From Eremomyces bilateralis CBS 781.70 (Eukaryota): DNA of 64,000 nt. Positions within the stretch are counted from its first letter, which is position 1, and every line of letters begins with the position of its first letter. The notes under the pieces were generated by a model that worked only from the letters and a program-made list of their open reading frames with translations, had not been told where the DNA came from and ran no database searches. The position numbers were made by a program, and so were the translations under genes. Where the stretch lies: NCBI GenBank assembly GCA_010015585.1, contig ML975180.1, one strand, 5' to 3'. Positions 36,777 to 48,995 of this stretch are shown one piece after another.

Positions 36777-36985
36777 TGCCACCCATGCAAAATCTCAACT
36801 GTCCAGAAACATAACTCGAGATAGGTAAAGCTCTTATCAATCGAAGCAATTGACCAGTGTCGTGTGTTCGCGTCGCAAGGAAACGCCTTTTGAGAGCCAA
36901 TCCCTGGTGGCGACTGGGGGAGCTGAGCTTATTTGAATGTGTTCCAGAGGCCTCCAAGTTCTCCATCGACGGTTCGACCAAATTC

Positions 36986-36992
36986 TGAGTCA
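36986..36992. promoter_or_regulatory. Putative Gcn4/CPC-1 (CpcA) binding site TGAGTCA upstream of ALA1
   Basis: Exact TGA(C/G)TCA about 160 bp upstream of the cytosolic ATG. Aminoacyl-tRNA synthetases are typical cross-pathway-control targets, but a 7-mer can occur by chance. Confidence 0.45.
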
Positions 36993-37149
36993 CGACGGCG
37001 CATTTCTAGGCCTTTCTACTCCAAATTTCCGCCGCCTATCTCCATTATCGGCTCGGCGCGATTTGTTTATTTCGTCAACACCGCTGACACATCGCCCTCG
37101 TTCGACAAGAATTCATTCTGCCCCACGGTTGCCGTGCATTCCGCGCAGT

Positions 37150-40100
37150 ATGGCTTCAATAGTCGATGAGCAGCCAAAATGGTCTGCACCCCATGTGCGG
37201 AACACATTCCTGGAGTTTTTCAAGAAGAGGGGACATACATTCGGTACGTGATCAAGAAGTCATTCATTGTCAGGCTATAGCTAACTCGAGTCAGTTCCCT
37301 CTTCGTCGGTTGTCCCTCTATCGGATCCAACACTCCTCTTCACCAATGCGGGAATGAACCAGTACAAGTCAATATTCCTTGGCACAGTCGATCCGCAATC
37401 CGATTTCGCCCAATTGAAAAGCGCGGTCAACTCGCAGAAGGTACGCTCGTTTTGGATGGTGGAAGACTTTGAACTGACCAGATCCATAGTGCATTCGTGC
37501 GGGTGGCAAGCACAATGTGAGTGATAGATGAGCGAAGGGGAGGCGGAGGCGAAGGCTAACGTGCAAAGGATCTCGACGATGTTGGGAAAGACAGCTACCA
37601 TCATGTATGTGATCCTTACTAGGCCAAGATCATCTACTTACCGTGATAGACGTTCTTCGAGATGATGGGCAATTGGAGTTTCGGGGACTACTTCAAGAAG
37701 GAAACTATCCAATACTCCTGGGAGCTCCTGACCAAGGAATTCGGTCTGGATCCCGACCGAATATACGTGACCTACTTCGAGGGAGACCCTGAAAGTGGCC
37801 TCGAACCGGACCTGGAGGCTCGAGACCTGTGGAAAGCCGTTGGCGTTTCCGACGACCATATCCTCCCCGGAGACATGAAGGACAACTTCTGGGAGATGGG
37901 CGACCAAGGCCCTTGCGGGCCCTGCAGTGAGCTACACTACGACCGACTAGGCGGTCGAAACGCTGCCCATCTCGTCAACCAGGATGACCCGAACGTGCTC
38001 GAGATCTGGAACAACGTGTTCATTCAGTACAATCGTGAGGCAGATAAGTCCCTGCGACCGCTACCAAATAAGCATATCGACACGGGCTTGGGTTTCGAGC
38101 GCCTGGTATCCATATTGCAGAACAAAATGTCAAATTACGACACCGACGTTTTCACCCCGATCTTCAAGGCCATCCAAGAGGTTACCGGGGCGAGGGAATA
38201 CCGTGGCAAGTTTGCGGAGGAGGATCCAGACGGAATTGACACCGCATACCGAGTCGTCGCTGACCATCTGCGGCTGCTTACCTTCGCCATTTCCGATGGT
38301 GGCGTTCCGAACAACGTCGGCCGTGGCTATGTGGTTCGACGCGTCCTTCGCCGCGGAGCTCGATACGCTCGCAAGTACTTCGACGTCGAGATCGGCAGCT
38401 TCTTCTCCAAGCTCGTCCCTAAGCTCGTGGAGCAAATGGGAGACATGTTCCCGGAGATCCGGAAGAAGCAGCAGGAGGTCATGGAGATCCTGGACGAGGA
38501 GGAGGAATCGTTCTCACGGAGCTTGGATCGCGGCGAGCACATGTTCGAGAAATACGCGCAAGATTGCAAGCTGAGGGACACCAAGAACCTTCCCGGTACG
38601 GACGTGTGGCGCTTGTACGATACGTACGGGTTCCCGGTGGACCTAACGAGGATCATGGCCGAGGAGCGGGGCTTGATCATCAATGACAAAGAGGTCGAAG
38701 AAGCCCAGGCCAAAGCCAAGGAGGCAAGCAAGAGCGAGAAGAAGGCGGCGGTCGGTCTGGTGAAGCTCGATGTGCACGATCTCGGGGCGCTAGAAATGAT
38801 GAACGACGTTCCCAAGACCGATGACTCTGCCAAATTCGCCAAAGGCAACATCACCTCGGAAATCAAGGCACTCTACCACTCGAAGCTATTCGTGAAATCC
38901 ACTGGCGAAATTCCCGAAGGCGATCAATTCGGAATTTTGCTGGACCGGACGAACTTCTATGCGGAGCAAGGTGGACAGGAGTATGACACCGGAAGCATTA
39001 TCATCGACGGCGTGGCCGAGATGGAGGTGCAGAATGTCCAGGTGTACGCCGGCTACGTCCTCCACACGGGCTACCTGAAATATGGTACCCTCTCCGTCGG
39101 CGACGCGGTCATCTCCATGTACAACGAAGAACGTCGTCACCCAATCAAGAACAACCACACTGGCACCCACATCCTCAACTTCGCCCTGCGCGAGACCCTT
39201 GGCGGCGAGATCGACCAGAAGGGCTCGCTGGTGGCGCCGGAGAAACTCCGCTTCGACTTCTCATACAAGTCCGCCGTGACCGACCAGCAGCTCCGCGCGA
39301 TCGAGGACCTCTGCACGAAGTACATCCGCGCCAACAACCCCGTGTACTCCAAAGACGTACCCCTCGCCACCGCCCGCGAGATCAACGGCGTCCGCGCCGT
39401 GTTCGGCGAGACGTATCCCGATCCGGTGCGCGTGGTTAGCGTGGGCGTGTCGGTGGAGGAGCTGCTCCGGGACGTCAAGAACGAGAAATGGCACGAGGTC
39501 AGCGTCGAGTTCTGCGGCGGCACGCACGTCGACAAGACCGGCGATATCAAGGAGCTGATCATCCTCGAGGAGAGCGGCATCGCCAAGGGGATCCGCCGCA
39601 TCGTGGCAGTGACGGGCCAGGATGCGATCACCGTGCAAGAAGACGCGAAGGCGTTTGACGAGCGCCTCGCGCGCCTCGAGCGCACATCGTACAGCGCGGA
39701 GAAAGACGCCGAGATGAAGAAAGTACAGTTCGACCTCGGCGCGCTCGCGGTGAGCCTCCTGACCAAGCGAACCTTCGCCAAGCGCATCGAAACATTAGTC
39801 AAAGACGCGAACAAGGAGAAGACGAAGCTGGAGAAGGAACTGAGCACGAAGGTGCTCGAGGTGGTTAAGGCGCAGCTCGCGAAGGACACGAGCCCCTTCG
39901 CGGTGGTGAAGATCCCGTACAAGACCACGGCGAAGACGATCAGCGAGGCACTAAAGTTCCTGCAAAATAAGGAGAAGGGCCGTATGGTGTATCTCATCGG
40001 TGCGGATAGCGGGGAGGGGAGAGTCGCGCATGGGTCCTATGTGCCCGAGGTACGCATCGTGGTCGATCGCGGAGTCACATCGCTAACGGTCTACAGGCTT

Positions 40101-40270: not shown

Positions 40271-40350
40271 TGTATTCTATTCAGATGAGGGACTAGCTTC
40301 CCGTGTACGCAATATACTGCTTGATGCAGATTATGTCAAGAGCTGCAATG

Positions 40351-41125
40351 CTAACCGCTCTCTTGGCGTATGTCTACCGCCAGGAGTAGCCCGAAGAGCA
40401 TCACTGTAAGCTACCGCTCACGTTAGCATTGACCATTCCATCCGTCTCTCAAAACGTACCCCCATCACCAACGCCATGATGCTATACACTTCAAACCCGC
40501 CCGCATGAACCTTCCCCCTCGCCATCGCATGCTGCTGCCTGTAGAACCGCACCGCCCCAAGGAGCGTCACCACAATCGCTGCGGCGATGAAGATGGACGA
40601 GATCGGAATCGCTAGCCGGTAGTACCCCAACGATCGATCCGGATCGGGCGTGTTCTGCAACCGAAATAGCTGGGCTACGATCACCCCGATCATGGAGAGC
40701 AGGATGGCCGCCCGGACATAGCCCAGGAACGTGCGCTCGAGTGCTGTGTGTAGGATATTATCAGTCACTCAACGTGATATATCGTCGGCATGGTTTGGCC
40801 CCAAGTGCACTTAAACGCGCGGGAATGGACATGCTCGGCTTCCAGACGCCAATTTCTTACCTAGATGATCGCGCTTCGACGTCGCCGGCACCACCAGCGA
40901 GATCTGATGCCGCCAGAACTTTCGGACAGGCTCACCCCATCGTCGTTGCGAGCCGGTCGATCGGGTCCTCGATAAAGCGGGTGAATTGCTCGAGACGCCA
41001 TGCTCCTCAGTCGCAGGGGCCGTCCAGGAGACGCGGGAGGTTTGCCGCTGGAACGAGGAGGGGACAGTGGATAGGTGGATGGAAGGGGGAGACGAGGGAG
41101 TTTGGTCTGGTGGGGGGTCGGGCAT
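40351..41125 (-). CDS. DUF202 (YidH-like) membrane protein, 3 exons
   Basis: [11 protein letters not shown]...[15 protein letters not shown]...AQLFRL followed by three hydrophobic segments. Last exon is [19 protein letters not shown]. Confidence 0.82.
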
Positions 41126-41431: not shown

Positions 41432-42387
41432 GACAAGGACAGGTGCAGATGCAGCCATGCAGGCTTCAGCAAGATATTATTACTGGACATTCATAATAAT
41501 ACCAAATATCTAATATCAAATATCAAATACCATTTGCTTAGATGACCAAGCCGATTCATTCTTCAATAACCGGCATGATAGGTAGATTATGGGGGGTTAG
41601 ACCGTGCAGGCAAAGAACCCGATCTAGGTCGCCGAGTTGGTCAGCCACCGACGAGAAAACTTACCGACGCAACTCCGCAACTCGGATGCTCAATTCGGGG
41701 TCTCGGGCATCAAGAATGAGCAATCAGATTGGCATTTCTCGTGGATGGCCCAGTTATCTTTTAGACGGCGTGGAGGTGGCCAGAAGCCGGCGCCTGGATT
41801 AAGAATTCGAGCAAGACGATCTGGATTCTGATACATCTGATGCCCAGGGAGTCGCCGAAGCTCCATACCTAGACCACAGTACAAGTGCATCTTAGAAATC
41901 ATCATTCCCACTGTTGCATCTGGATCATCTCAAATAGGTACTTAATTCTATGCATCGTCTCTCTTAGAACCTTCCAATCTGATCTGGTCTCAATCTTCGA
42001 CCTTACCATCTTACATCATCACCGAATCTAAGCCCACCTGCCCACGGTCCCGCCCATTAGTCTATCTCTCAATCTTCCGCGTCCCGCTTCCCACTGGGCA
42101 AAATCTCCCTCATCAACCCCCATCGACGTATATCTCGAGCCGCATAAGTTGAACCCATCGCCGATTTTCTTCTCCTGGACCCCCGACACATTGCCCACTC
42201 ACCCGATCCTCCCCGCGTCGCCAAACTGTTTTCCTTCACCTTCCGTCGAGCCTTCACCTCCCCGCTTCGCGCATCCATCTCCGTACCCATCGCCGCCGCC
42301 GCCCTCTCCCAACCGAAGCCAGCCCCCGCAGCTTTTTCGCCGGCGACCTCGACGTTTGGAAACTCGGCCGTCCGAGGAACGAGGAAC

Positions 42388-43742
42388 ATGCATTCGAAAC
42401 TCATCAGTAAGTCCTGCGGAAACCATATCGCCCCGCTGAAGCATCCATACTGACCCTGCTGTAGTCATCGGGTAAGCCTTTTTTGCGACCACCACTACAC
42501 CGTCGAGACATACTAACATGGACCTTGAAGCTCCGGCCCTGCTGGCCACACCGCAGCTATATACGCCGCTCGAGCAGACCTAAAACGTATGTCGCGCATG
42601 TCTCTGAAATTTTCGACGGTGGGGCTAACCTAGCGTCAGCGGTCATGTACGAGGGATTCATGGCCCTCGGGATCGCGGCCGGCGGGCAATTGACCACCAC
42701 CGACGAGGTTGAGAACTTCCCTGGGTTCCTGAAGATCGGCGGGGCGCAATTGATGGTAAGCGGGAATATGAGGGAGGTCAAGCGCGTGAACCTCATGCTG
42801 ACGGTGTCCCAGGACCAAATGCGCACCCAATCCGAAGAAGCCGGTACCGAAATCGTCTCCCAAACCGTCGCGAAGATCGACCTCAAGTCCAAACCCTTCC
42901 GCTACTGGCTCCACCCCATGGGGGACGACGACACGATCGAGGACGAAGAACACACCACTGACGCCGTCATCGTGGCTACCGGCGCTAAAGCCCGCCGCCT
43001 CGACCTCCCGGGCGAGGACAAATACTGGGGCTACGGCGTCAGCGCGTGCGCGGTGTGCGACGGCTCCCTCCCGATGTTCCGCGAGAAGCCTCTCGTCGTG
43101 ATTGGCGGCGGCGATTCCGCCGTCGAGGAGGCCATCTACCTGACGAAGAAGGCGAGCAAGGTGTACGTGCTGGTGCGGCGGGATCAGCTGCGGGCGTCGC
43201 GCGCGAACGCGCGCCGGCTGGCAGGAAACCCGAAGGTCGAGGTGCGGTATAACACGTCGGCCACGCGGATTGTGGGCGACGAGAAGACGAATGGGCTGAT
43301 GACGGGGCTGAGGGTGAGGAATAAGGAGACCGGGAAGGAGGAGGAGTTGACGGCGAGCGGACTGTTCTACGCCGTGGGACACGATCCGGCCACCGCGCTG
43401 TTCAAAGGGCAGTTGGACATGGATGAAGACGGGTATCTCACCACGCAGCCGGGGACAGGCCACACGAATGTGGAAGGCGTGTTCGCGGCCGGCGACGTGC
43501 AAGACAAAAAATATCGGCAAGCCGTGACAAGCGCGGGTGGGTTCCCTGACCTGATTTGAACCCTATGACGTGATGCTAACAGCTGCGCAATAGGTTCCGG
43601 CTGCATCGCCGCCCTCGAAGCCGAGAAATACCTCACCGAGATGGACGACACGGTGGAGAACGACCTCGACAAGGAGAACCAGGCCGAGAAGTCCCAGACC
43701 AACGGCGTCGTCCCGGAATACCGCTCGAACCCGTTGCTGTAG
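42388..43742 (+). CDS. TRR1: Thioredoxin reductase (low-MW type), 6 exons including a 7-nt microexon; probable CUG-initiated longer isoform from 42226
   Basis: Spliced [87 protein letters not shown]. Confidence 0.96.
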
Positions 43743-46162: not shown

Positions 46163-48995
46163 TAGGGATGTGTAAAGTGCGAAAAGTAAGGACCTTACCG
46201 TAAACTAGCCCTAGATTTCTGGAAAGGTTATTTTTTACCTTACATGACGGTATTATGCGCTAGCTTAATATGGTTAGTGTATTTTTTTGTATCAATAGCA
46301 CGCTAGTCGTATATAGTTAGTAACAACGATTCTACCAAGGCCCCAAACTCCAAACCACCGTCATTTCTATCTACGATATCTTCACAAAACGACGTTTAAT
46401 CTTAATATACAATACATTTCTATAATGCCCTGATCAAAGGCTACAAAGCAATATTTATATCACATGAAAAAGTCTATGTTCTACTCACTTCAAACTGTCG
46501 CGTCTTCTTGTCAACTGTCGAGCCGAAAGATGATGCACGTTGCCTTGGGCAACGAGCTGGAATATTTGATGCATTTTCTGCCGCCGCCCATAGCCGTACG
46601 AAACCTAACTTATTATTATTATTATTTACATGAGCAGATTGCTCTCGATGAGCTGTATAATTTGATATGGATAAGACAATATCTAGACTAGGTTTTCGTT
46701 GGTTACGGGTATGCCATTGCGTTGAGCATGAAAGTGCTCAACTTCTTGAATAAGTTTGTGGCCACTTTATTCATCAACTACAGAACTCAAAATAATTTCA
46801 CCAAACATCGATCAATTCGTACTTTTTTTACATCAAATTATTCGTCTTGATAAGCTCTACTACTCCATCTATTCAAATGCCCCCTAAAGATCGTCTTGTC
46901 TGGAAATATTTCGAGGAGCGCCCTGAGCTTGGCATACCGAAGCAAAAGTATTGTACACTTTGCAATAGATACAGCTGTCAATCGAACACCACCAGAGAAC
47001 GCACACATCTCGTTACTATTTGCAAGGAAAATATGGAGGCAAAGGAATCAGAGAACAGAGGAAAGGATGAGATACAGAGAAAGAGGCCTCTTTCTCCAAA
47101 TGAAGATGCTTCGCCTATTGTCAAAATACCCAGGCAAACGACGCTGACAGCAAACGGTATTACCTACCGTACGCAGGGCGAGAGACTGCAGGAGAGAATC
47201 GAGGCTCTTCTAACGCGGTTCATCGTGATGTCTGGATCTCCATTTTCACTTGTTGAAAACAGCGATTTCCAGAGTTTTATCAAGATACTCGATCCTGCCT
47301 TCAAACTCCCTAATCGCGAACGCCTCAGTGGTGAGCTCCTCGCCGACCTATATCACAAAACATCGCTTCAAGTCCAACACGTTATCGACCATCGACGCGA
47401 CCATTTCAGCCTCAATTTCTGTCTGGACGAGTCGAATAACCAACAGAACGATCGCGTCTTGAACTTCTCCGTTGTCCATCCCGACTTTGGATCGCTTACA
47501 CTCCATACAAGACCTGTCGATGCGCAAGCCTCCTTGACTGGGGAATTCTATTACGAATACTTCCGCTCGGTGGTAAAACCGGTGGTGAAAGGAGATTACA
47601 AGCGGATCAACAGTATCTCGACGGATACCTGCAAGACAATGAGGAAGTTCTGGAAACTCTGTCAAAATGATGAAGAGCTATCGCATATCATCTGTGTACC
47701 TTGTCAATCTCACAGTTTAAACCTCCTCATTGGCGATATCATCAAGATGGACCATTTCCGCGATCATTTCACCACTTTCAAGAATCTCGTCCGCGACCTC
47801 TCGTCCTCAAACAAAACCATCGGTGAGATTAAAAAGATACAGCAAGAGAACGGACGGAAATATATCGCTTTTGCTTCAGCGGTAGAGACGCGATGGGGAA
47901 GTCATATCGCGATGCTGAAATCGCTGCAGGCGAACAGAGATCCTATACAAGAATTCTTTTTCTCGCGATTACCTCTGCTTACCGGTGATGCGATTAAGAA
48001 GCTGAAACCGTACCGCGATGAGATTCTGGCCCCTGGTCTGTGGAATGAGCTTGATCGGACTCTCCACGTCCTTGATCCTATCACCAAGGCTCTGAAAAAG
48101 ACGGAATCATCTCGATTAGACATTGGGCGTGTCGTAAAGCTCTGGAACGACCTTAGGAAAGAGGTTGAGTCTGCAGGAATCCGGTTTGGTATGGATGCCT
48201 TCGCAGCGAAGCTCCTCGCGGTGTTTGATAAGCGATATCAAGACCAGCTGGATGTCTCATTTCACCACCTCGCGTTTTATATCCATCCAGAGTTTAGGAA
48301 AGAGCCTCTCCAAGCTGATTCGCTCGATTACATCAAAAGCACGATCCAGGATCTATTTTTTCCAGAGGAGGAAGATGTCCAGGCCTGCCTTGATGAGATT
48401 ATGCTATTCAAGTCTTCATCGGGCATCTTTGCATCAAATAAGGACCTAGCGAAGCGAGTTGGTGATCCTGAGGGATACTGGAGGTTTGCGGAGGCTCTCC
48501 TTCATAGCAGTCGTATCGCTTCTATCGCTGCCCGCATCTTTTCAGCTCCAACGAGCTCAGTTCCATCTGAACGAGCGTTTTCTATTCAGAATCTCACGAT
48601 GAGTGCGAAGCGCTCACGATTGGATCCAGAGAGATGTAATAAAATGATGTATATCTATATGAATCGGCGATCGATGGACGCGATGAAGCAGGAGCGAAAA
48701 GAACGCGGTGTATCGCAGATTGAGATGGAGGATCTCCTCCTCCAAATTGAGGAGGAAATCGGGCTGCGATATCACGCATTTGACGATGTCTAAATAGCTT
48801 CATAACTTCCTACTTCAGCGTGTTTTGAGTCTGAGATCTCCATCACTTATGGTTGTCTGTGAACATCATCAACCCGAGGTCGTATTACAAATTTGTATGG
48901 TAATGTGGGCCGGTAAAGTAAAAAATCTATAATACCGCCAAGACCCGTAATTACGGGCAATCTATCTTTCATACATCTTACATTACACACCCCTA
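46163..48995 (+). mobile_element. Complete autonomous hAT DNA transposon (2833 bp)
   Basis: Left TIR TAGGGATGTGTAAAGT at 46163. Right TIR reverse complement TAGGGGTGTGTAATGT ends at 48995. An identical 8-bp TSD GTCCCTTT lies at 46155-46162 and 48996-49003. Encodes a hAT transposase. Confidence 0.93.
46877..48793 (+). CDS. hAT transposase (BED zinc finger, RNase H-like DDE core, hATC dimerisation domain)
   Basis: VWKYF..CTLC..HLVTIC (BED), PFSLVEN, CLDES, STDT, CQSHSLNL (CxxH), TRWGS, and YW...IAARIFSAPTSSVPSERAFS. Confidence 0.93.
   Translation: MPPKDRLVWKYFEERPELGIPKQKYCTLCNRYSCQSNTTRERTHLVTICKENMEAKESENRGKDEIQRKRPLSPNEDASPIVKIPRQTTLTANGITYRTQGERLQERIEALLTRFIVMSGSPFSLVENSDFQSFIKILDPAFKLPNRERLSGELLADLYHKTSLQVQHVIDHRRDHFSLNFCLDESNNQQNDRVLNFSVVHPDFGSLTLHTRPVDAQASLTGEFYYEYFRSVVKPVVKGDYKRINSISTDTCKTMRKFWKLCQNDEELSHIICVPCQSHSLNLLIGDIIKMDHFRDHFTTFKNLVRDLSSSNKTIGEIKKIQQENGRKYIAFASAVETRWGSHIAMLKSLQANRDPIQEFFFSRLPLLTGDAIKKLKPYRDEILAPGLWNELDRTLHVLDPITKALKKTESSRLDIGRVVKLWNDLRKEVESAGIRFGMDAFAAKLLAVFDKRYQDQLDVSFHHLAFYIHPEFRKEPLQADSLDYIKSTIQDLFFPEEEDVQACLDEIMLFKSSSGIFASNKDLAKRVGDPEGYWRFAEALLHSSRIASIAARIFSAPTSSVPSERAFSIQNLTMSAKRSRLDPERCNKMMYIYMNRRSMDAMKQERKERGVSQIEMEDLLLQIEEEIGLRYHAFDDV

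Follow-up and report, generated by a model that had tools for sequence, protein, structure and literature searches.

A conserved leader with a candidate CUG start, predicted to encode a mitochondrial presequence, upstream of thioredoxin reductase in Eremomyces bilateralis and other filamentous ascomycetes

Results

The thioredoxin reductase locus

The window analysed here is a stretch of 64,000 nucleotides of contig ML975180.1 of Eremomyces bilateralis CBS 781.70. A gene of six exons encodes a protein of 356 residues whose translation is identical to database protein P0001, the listed thioredoxin reductase of this Dothideomycete (Table 1). The body of the protein matches Pyr_redox_2 (Pfam PF07992, E 5.5e-46) and the GGGDSA motif is, alongside CAVC, invariant in 33/33 aligned orthologues; by domain and motifs the enzyme is classed as a low-molecular-weight NADPH thioredoxin reductase (Trr1/TrxB). 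When the orthologue P0116 was used as query, the matches in the PDB were fungal low-molecular-weight thioredoxin reductases (6BPY, E 1.6e-143; 7YTV, 5W4C and 3ITJ), which share the catalytic body; the matches begin at query residue 50-53 and leave the N-terminal extension of P0116 unmatched. The reductase is a single-copy gene: all matches in the genome fall at one locus among the best four and the best five candidates scored. A set of contigs from one run (X1), whose RNA nature we guessed and which gives neither 5' ends nor levels, joins the exons as predicted. The 7-nt micro-exon at 42465-42471 (+) is backed by the letters between the joint in an RNA contig, and the region around it is mis-spliced in some database orthologue models (P0026, P0221). 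Dothideomycete-type reductases also carry an acidic insertion after a conserved HP motif (enzyme residues about 98-113, within 42813-43536 (+) of the window), and in a quick tree they are well separated from those of other Pezizomycotina classes.

Table 1. Features of the thioredoxin reductase gene and its leader in the window
Feature	Position	Strand	Evidence and remarks
Last in-frame stop upstream, TAA	42145..42147	+	Bounds the open frame, 26 open codons before CTG
Initiation context GCCAAA	42220..42225	+	A at -3; GCCAA[A/T] in 5/6 orthologue loci
CTG, putative near-cognate start of the long isoform	42226..42228	+	CTG 4, GTG 1, ATG 1 among 6 orthologue loci; Leu 50, Val 7, Met 7 of 72 protein rows
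54-codon N-terminal extension, putative cleavable mitochondrial presequence	42226..42387	+	Composition, conservation, RNA contig coverage without intron
Basic amphipathic segment, extension residues 6-16	42241..42273	+	Hydrophobic moment 0.76; Arg8 in 70/81 rows, Arg15 in 65/78
Short hydrophobic Ala-rich segment, residues 17-27	42274..42306	+	Conserved: Ala in 69-87% of rows at residues 23-26
Arg codon 2 residues before the canonical Met, candidate R-2 processing site	42382..42384	+	Arg 56/68, Lys 6/68 non-redundant proteins
Canonical ATG, 356-aa cytosolic enzyme	42388..42390	+	A at -3
Thioredoxin reductase coding region	42388..43742	+	Exons 42388-42406, 42465-42471, 42531-42586, 42640-42755, 42813-43536, 43594-43742; translation identical to P0001; joints in RNA contigs
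CAVC redox-active site	43047..43058	+	Invariant, 33/33 aligned orthologues

The CTG codon and the open leader

An initial annotation of this DNA proposed that a CUG-initiated mitochondrial presequence is hidden upstream of the reductase ATG. The arrangement it described is present: the CTG at 42226 and the ATG at 42388 share a frame exactly 54 codons apart, and there is no other ATG in any frame in 41953-42387. The extension so defined is rich in Arg, Ser and Ala and free of acidic residues, as had been claimed (11 Ala, 8 Ser, 5 Arg, 1 Lys and 0 Asp/Glu in 54 residues); it contains no Pfam family and is missed by standard annotation, since the database protein begins at the ATG. Two details of the description need amending. 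The context of the CTG was called strong, which holds for the A at -3 but not for +4, where there is a T rather than the optimal G (PMC5487733). Acidic residues do occur upstream of the CTG but do not directly adjoin it, the nearest being an Asp seven codons before. The frame also contains other near-cognate codons, three upstream (42157, 42175, 42190) and six downstream of the CTG. That one of the three, or 42277, 42289 or 42352 downstream, might be the true start is allowed by their being in frame, but the upstream codons add acidic residues and sit in unconserved sequence, the downstream ones lose the basic segment, and a purine at -3 is found only for 42289 and for AGG at 42382; we regard initiation at any of them as extremely improbable.

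One RNA contig is continuous from 41600 to 42406, with no joint in between. As this contig is spliced yet unbroken over the CTG, the CTG region belongs to spliced RNA and not to an intron. RNA contig coverage extends about 750 nt above the CTG, to about 41475, and this stretch holds eight ATGs, which may represent minor upstream starts or an overlap with a divergent gene. If most mRNAs start this far above the CTG, upstream open reading frames would complicate simple scanning. The divergent gene encodes a DUF202 protein (about 40300-41125, (-)), and the RNA contig covers several short upstream open reading frames in the intergenic region that it shares with the reductase.

How far could one genome show this pattern by chance? 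All three frames are stop-free over 42226-42387. An open, ATG-free leader arose in 60% of 20000 Markov samples with the leader's own composition; requiring in addition no Asp or Glu and at least six Arg or Lys residues lowered the share to 2.6%, and to 0.2% when another 20000 samples took their composition from the 400 nt upstream. As both other frames are open and the leader is C-rich, the open frame by itself means little. The 10-mer of the initiation context is not rare either, with 53 occurrences in the genome vs 43 for the control. Among the 30 of its 52 other sites that were looked at, one passed a filter for an acid-free, basic frame of 30 codons, so that these 30 gave no family of like CTG sites. 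The sole passing site (L121, G000:C7:1160879-1163888) has the same context and a CTG opening an acid-free basic frame with a Met after 50 codons; a stop lies two codons past this Met, and the site is probably due to chance. Taken alone, the pattern in the window is modest and could be chance as well; it is conservation that decides.

Conservation of the leader in orthologous DNA

A metagenome scan kept 80 loci, seven at 69-81% identity (L002-L008) and 73 at 47-56%. Fifteen of the 80 were examined for a fungal-type start, which six had, L008 being without a 5' end; the remaining 65 were set aside by identity. A quick tree, used only for placement, puts the loci in several Dothideomycete-type groups. 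The start pattern for the leader comparison was chosen after a first look at those leaders, and in each of the six fungal loci that have a leader an in-frame extension, 45-60 codons long, precedes the main ATG. Its first codon is CTG in L002, L004, L006 and L007 and GTG in L003, each preceded by GCCAA[A/T]; in L005 it is an ATG in weak context (T at -3). In-frame stops lie 7-35 codons above the start in the six loci, and in the five with a near-cognate codon no ATG occurs in the 150 nt above it or between it and the main ATG. Counting the window, the near-cognate cases have A at -3 in 6/6, with T at +4 in five and G in one. Leu, Val and Met thus vary while an xTG codon stays, as expected of a start. 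Frame, start position, context and presequence-like make-up are kept in 6/6 loci with a leader, which is the outcome that the comparison of leaders suggested in the initial annotation would give for a functional start. The matches of L002 and L003 span residues 1-356 uninterrupted by introns, and the two sequences reach 232 and 138 nt 5' of the codon; as L007 has an intron at the position of the window's first intron, where L002 has none, L002 at least is probably a transcript.

Is the leader translated, or is it a conserved non-coding sequence or a chance open frame? The openness of all three frames over the extension in the window, likely a product of composition, would suit an untranslated leader. 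The orthologues speak otherwise. Over the first 30 columns the mismatch by codon position is 0.50/0.23/0.58, so that second positions are the most conserved, in an alignment that was built on peptides and somewhat favours a low second-position mismatch. Extension lengths differ by whole codons, stops occur in the other frames in 3/6 orthologue loci, and at columns where Arg or Ala is invariant several synonymous codons are in use. The Arg codon at -2 is AGG, CGC or CGG in 6/7 DNA sequences, with Gly in L003. A search of the leader for a conserved RNA structure returned two pairs, no covariation and a z-score of +0.79, and the peptide motifs persist across classes, as described below. An untranslated leader is, on this evidence, very unlikely.

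The upstream start is near-cognate or weak in 7/7 sequences (the window and six loci). This bears on a further alternative, in which the extension is mitochondrial, yet it is chiefly the choice of transcription start that sets the isoform ratio, with a long mRNA that includes the CUG and a short one that starts between the CTG and the ATG. Alternative transcription starts are reported to back up start-codon choice in some fungal tRNA synthetases (PMC7049704), and the RNA contigs cannot reveal 5' ends. However, a strong AUG would be good enough if the choice of isoform lay with transcription alone, and the persistence of near-cognate or weak starts points to leak-through. We consider alternative transcription starts an unlikely main source of the isoform ratio.

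Conservation of the extension in orthologous proteins

The codons compared above cover seven Dothideomycete-type sequences; for other classes the comparison is made on translations only. The same peptide is exposed by gene models that run upstream in Aureobasidium, Stagonosporopsis, Boeremia and Friedmanniomyces, and also in Parathielavia, Neurospora intermedia (the whole extension), Hypoxylon, Claviceps, Ustilaginoidea, Lachnellula, Monilinia and Teloschistes. The second (3') half alone is found in Myotisia and in an N. crassa record, at least some of the extension is present in Fusarium records, and P0184 (Alyxoria) has unlike upstream sequence. The extension is present in database proteins of Dothideomycetes, Sordariomycetes, Leotiomycetes and Lecanoromycetes and partly in one Eurotiomycete, a span of four to five Pezizomycotina classes in which the lineages were looked up for Sordariomycetes, Leotiomycetes, Lecanoromycetes and Eurotiomycetes and the other species are presumably of the classes to which we assign them. 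These protein sets were gathered by similarity to extension-bearing queries and so show breadth, not frequency. In chytrid and basidiomycete orthologues the annotated N-terminus is presequence-like and starts with an ATG.

From 146 proteins with at least 30 upstream residues, 89 non-redundant sequences were retained. Among these Pezizomycotina proteins, Neurospora included, conservation begins at the column of the CTG codon: the share of the commonest residue is 13-31% at -14 to -4, 40/51/72% at -3 to -1 and 57-89% at seven of the first eight positions. The Thr-Ala-Lys at -3 to -1 is the translation of the start context ACC GCC AAA. The start column is mostly Leu, with some Val and Met (Table 1), and the next residue is Phe in 66/74. 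The Met rows are starts set by gene callers and may be GTG or TTG, since two members of one cluster differ here, P0129 with Val and P0277 with Met. The conserved Arg8 is followed by Leu14 (62/78) and Arg15, and then by the Ala run. An earlier set of 68 contained 44 rows whose start could be recognised; over their first 20 residues, 880 in all, there are 138 Arg/Lys and not one Asp/Glu. The Arg two residues before the canonical Met is also found in 27/45 of a mixed set that includes non-Pezizomycotina rows.

Many of the upstream-running models raise the question of whether the extension could be an exon in the interior of a longer gene, joined either to an AUG exon further upstream or, in a real fusion, to the neighbouring upstream gene. 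Such an arrangement is suggested by 29 and 10 of 120 listed proteins in which the extension is fused with a zinc-dehydrogenase-like domain and with Vps53, respectively, counts taken from the Pfam column in a search whose query was itself a fusion and whose length filter favours fusions. But the partner changes with lineage, the junction falls at varying places in the extension, and in the window the neighbouring DUF202 gene points away. There is no acceptor-like YAG in 42100-42319 and no donor consensus in 41700-42390, and the RNA contig shows no joint before 42406. We give an internal exon of either kind almost no weight. The fusions are probably mis-joined gene models, in which predictors attached an ATG-less coding leader to the upstream gene, and many of the reductase-upstream gene 'fusions' in databases would then be annotation errors. 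Examples are P0176, P0289, P0317 and P0323; the zinc-dehydrogenase-like partner is seen in Sordariales and Vps53 in Hypocreales and Phlyctema.

Presequence character of the extension

Judged by the features of matrix presequences and by the R-2 processing rule, the extension has a net positive, acid-free N-terminus rich in Ser, Thr and Ala, the potential for an amphipathic helix and an Arg at -2. The hydrophobic moment of residues 6-16 is reached by 2.4% of 5000 shuffles, and its median over 44 rows is 0.78. In an AlphaFold2 model of P0116 (29 rows) the extension is coil with pLDDT <50, which neither supports nor excludes a helix on binding. A bipartite signal for the intermembrane space has a hydrophobic segment of transmembrane length after the presequence, and no such segment is present in the window extension. 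Its Ala-rich block is about 11 residues long, with a mean hydropathy of 1.91 over 11 residues and 1.24 over 19, and a stop-transfer helix is longer than this. Matched against the PTS2 consensus, the window's extension contains no PTS2 nonapeptide. The interpretation of the CUG extension as a mitochondrial presequence is supported by these sequence properties.

An extension translated from the CUG could also send the enzyme elsewhere than to the matrix, either into the intermembrane space by a bipartite or Gpx3-like route or nowhere, if import failed. The hydrophobic Ala-rich block that follows the basic segment is more conserved than is usual for presequences, which would suit sorting to the intermembrane space. 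Yeast Gpx3 is reported to get there via a non-AUG extension (PMC5368413). On the other hand, the block is short for a stop-transfer helix, the conserved Arg at -2 fits matrix processing and there is no PTS2 match. We therefore hold a destination other than the matrix to be rather improbable.

Discussion

Based on these comparisons, we propose a model in which a single gene gives rise to two isoforms, the CUG at 42226 yielding by leaky initiation a cleaved precursor imported into the matrix and the AUG yielding the cytosolic enzyme; we consider this model probable. A scanning ribosome would meet the CUG in what may be a favourable context, and a minority would initiate there with Met, producing a precursor of 410 residues whose first ~16 residues would form a positively charged, amphipathic presequence. 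After import into the matrix the precursor would be cleaved behind the residue that follows Arg53, so that the mature mitochondrial enzyme would start at or next to the canonical Met and be nearly identical to the cytosolic form. Most ribosomes would bypass the CUG, encounter no AUG before the one at 42388 and start there, yielding the cytosolic enzyme, and the inefficient start codon would set a small mitochondrial share. We infer initiation at the CUG, leaky scanning, import, the cleavage site and the partner from sequence comparison. The proposal of the initial annotation that one gene supplies the cytosolic as well as the mitochondrial reductase gains support from the conserved leaders, the single copy and a presequence-bearing thioredoxin in the genome. 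Weighing against the model are the T at +4 and the cytoplasmic appearance of a Fusarium reductase: a TRR-GFP fusion under its own promoter in Fusarium graminearum is described as uniformly cytoplasmic (PMC6416177). A minor organellar pool is reported to be hard to see beneath a large cytosolic one (PMC6582344).

The mechanism is already established elsewhere. In Saccharomyces cerevisiae, ALA1 and GRS1 have isoforms initiated at ACG and UUG, and CUG and GUG are described as generally the most efficient near-cognate starts (PMC5666671). As in these genes, one gene carries an in-frame upstream near-cognate codon, with no AUG or stop before the main AUG, and encodes a putative N-terminal extension and a short AUG form; the start and frame of the reductase extension are conserved, and the genome matches scored show no dedicated paralogue. 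ALA1 and GRS1, however, encode tRNA synthetases and their isoforms are experimentally shown, whereas here we are dealing with a redox enzyme and CUG or GUG, known from comparison alone. Yeast Trr1, of the same enzyme family, is among 18 candidates for near-cognate, mitochondria-targeted N-terminal extensions and was detected in the mitochondrial fraction (PMC6582344); yeast has a separate mitochondrial TRR2, while E. bilateralis has a single reductase gene. The thioredoxin reductase of Plasmodium falciparum belongs to a different, high-molecular-weight class. It is likewise single copy and reported to reach cytosol and mitochondrion through alternative initiation (PMC3009606), closing the same kind of gap, but with two ATGs. 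Fungal 6-phosphogluconate dehydrogenase, also a redox enzyme, carries a conserved targeting signal within what is annotated as 5' UTR, in this case a non-AUG extension with a peroxisomal PTS2 (PMC7214817). The near-cognate starts of Neurospora cpc-1 and their context are conserved across Pezizomycotina (PMC5487733), as in our case, but that extension makes a regulatory isoform of a transcription factor and is not an organelle-targeting signal. Swaps between weak AUG and near-cognate starts, in fungal tRNA synthetases, have been reported as well (PMC7049704).

What does the extension mean for filamentous ascomycetes? They are credited with a single thioredoxin reductase that is cytosolic (PMC6416177), and the enzyme is listed among cytosolic antioxidants (PMC13253075). 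A 2025 Neurospora preprint reports a mitochondrial thioredoxin, states no N-terminal signal and notes an apparent absence of a mitochondrial reductase (10.1101/2025.04.24.650474). We found no literature report of the reductase extension in filamentous ascomycetes, in a search that was thin on subscription papers and on supplements, which may list the gene; the main text of a Kluyveromyces marxianus proteoform preprint makes no mention of the reductase. The conserved instance in the thioredoxin reductase of filamentous ascomycetes thus appears new; judged on sequence, we take the arrangement to be real and its scope wide. The CUG start most likely adds a mitochondrial address tag, which would explain how mitochondria are supplied in filamentous fungi with one reductase. 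If this is true, the leader supplies the missing mitochondrial reductase of these fungi, one-base changes make the question testable, and deletion or promoter-replacement phenotypes of the reductase mix cytosolic and mitochondrial loss.

The mitochondrial form of the reductase would reduce a presequence-bearing thioredoxin encoded elsewhere in the genome. This thioredoxin (L083) has two ATGs, the first in weak and the second in strong context; the 47 residues that separate them form a leader free of acidic residues, with much Arg, Ser and Thr. The protein is likely a mitochondrial substrate of the reductase, itself dual-started. More speculatively, and with considerable doubt, the CUG presequence might be ancestral to most filamentous ascomycetes and be the unrecognised mitochondrial reductase of Neurospora and its relatives. 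The partner thioredoxin might be dual-targeted by leaky initiation, so that the stringency of start-codon choice would adjust all of the mitochondrial thioredoxin system together, and the Ala-rich block, with its unusual conservation, might have a sorting or regulatory role that an ordinary presequence lacks. The L083 locus lies at G000:C5:242574-245858 (-), with its two in-frame ATGs about 1270 and 1411 nt from the far end of the locus and a TATA-like box about 50 nt above the first.

Two other genes in the window may be noted. An alanyl-tRNA synthetase gene (36937-37152 (+)) has two in-frame ATGs 71 codons apart, an upstream one at 36937 (T at -3) and another at 37150, and an Arg/Ser-rich leader; the dual-AUG arrangement is as described for N. 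crassa AlaRS (PMC7049704). Downstream of the reductase, a long open frame at 46796-48793 (+) encodes DUF659 and hAT dimerisation domains and resembles an hAT-type transposase gene.
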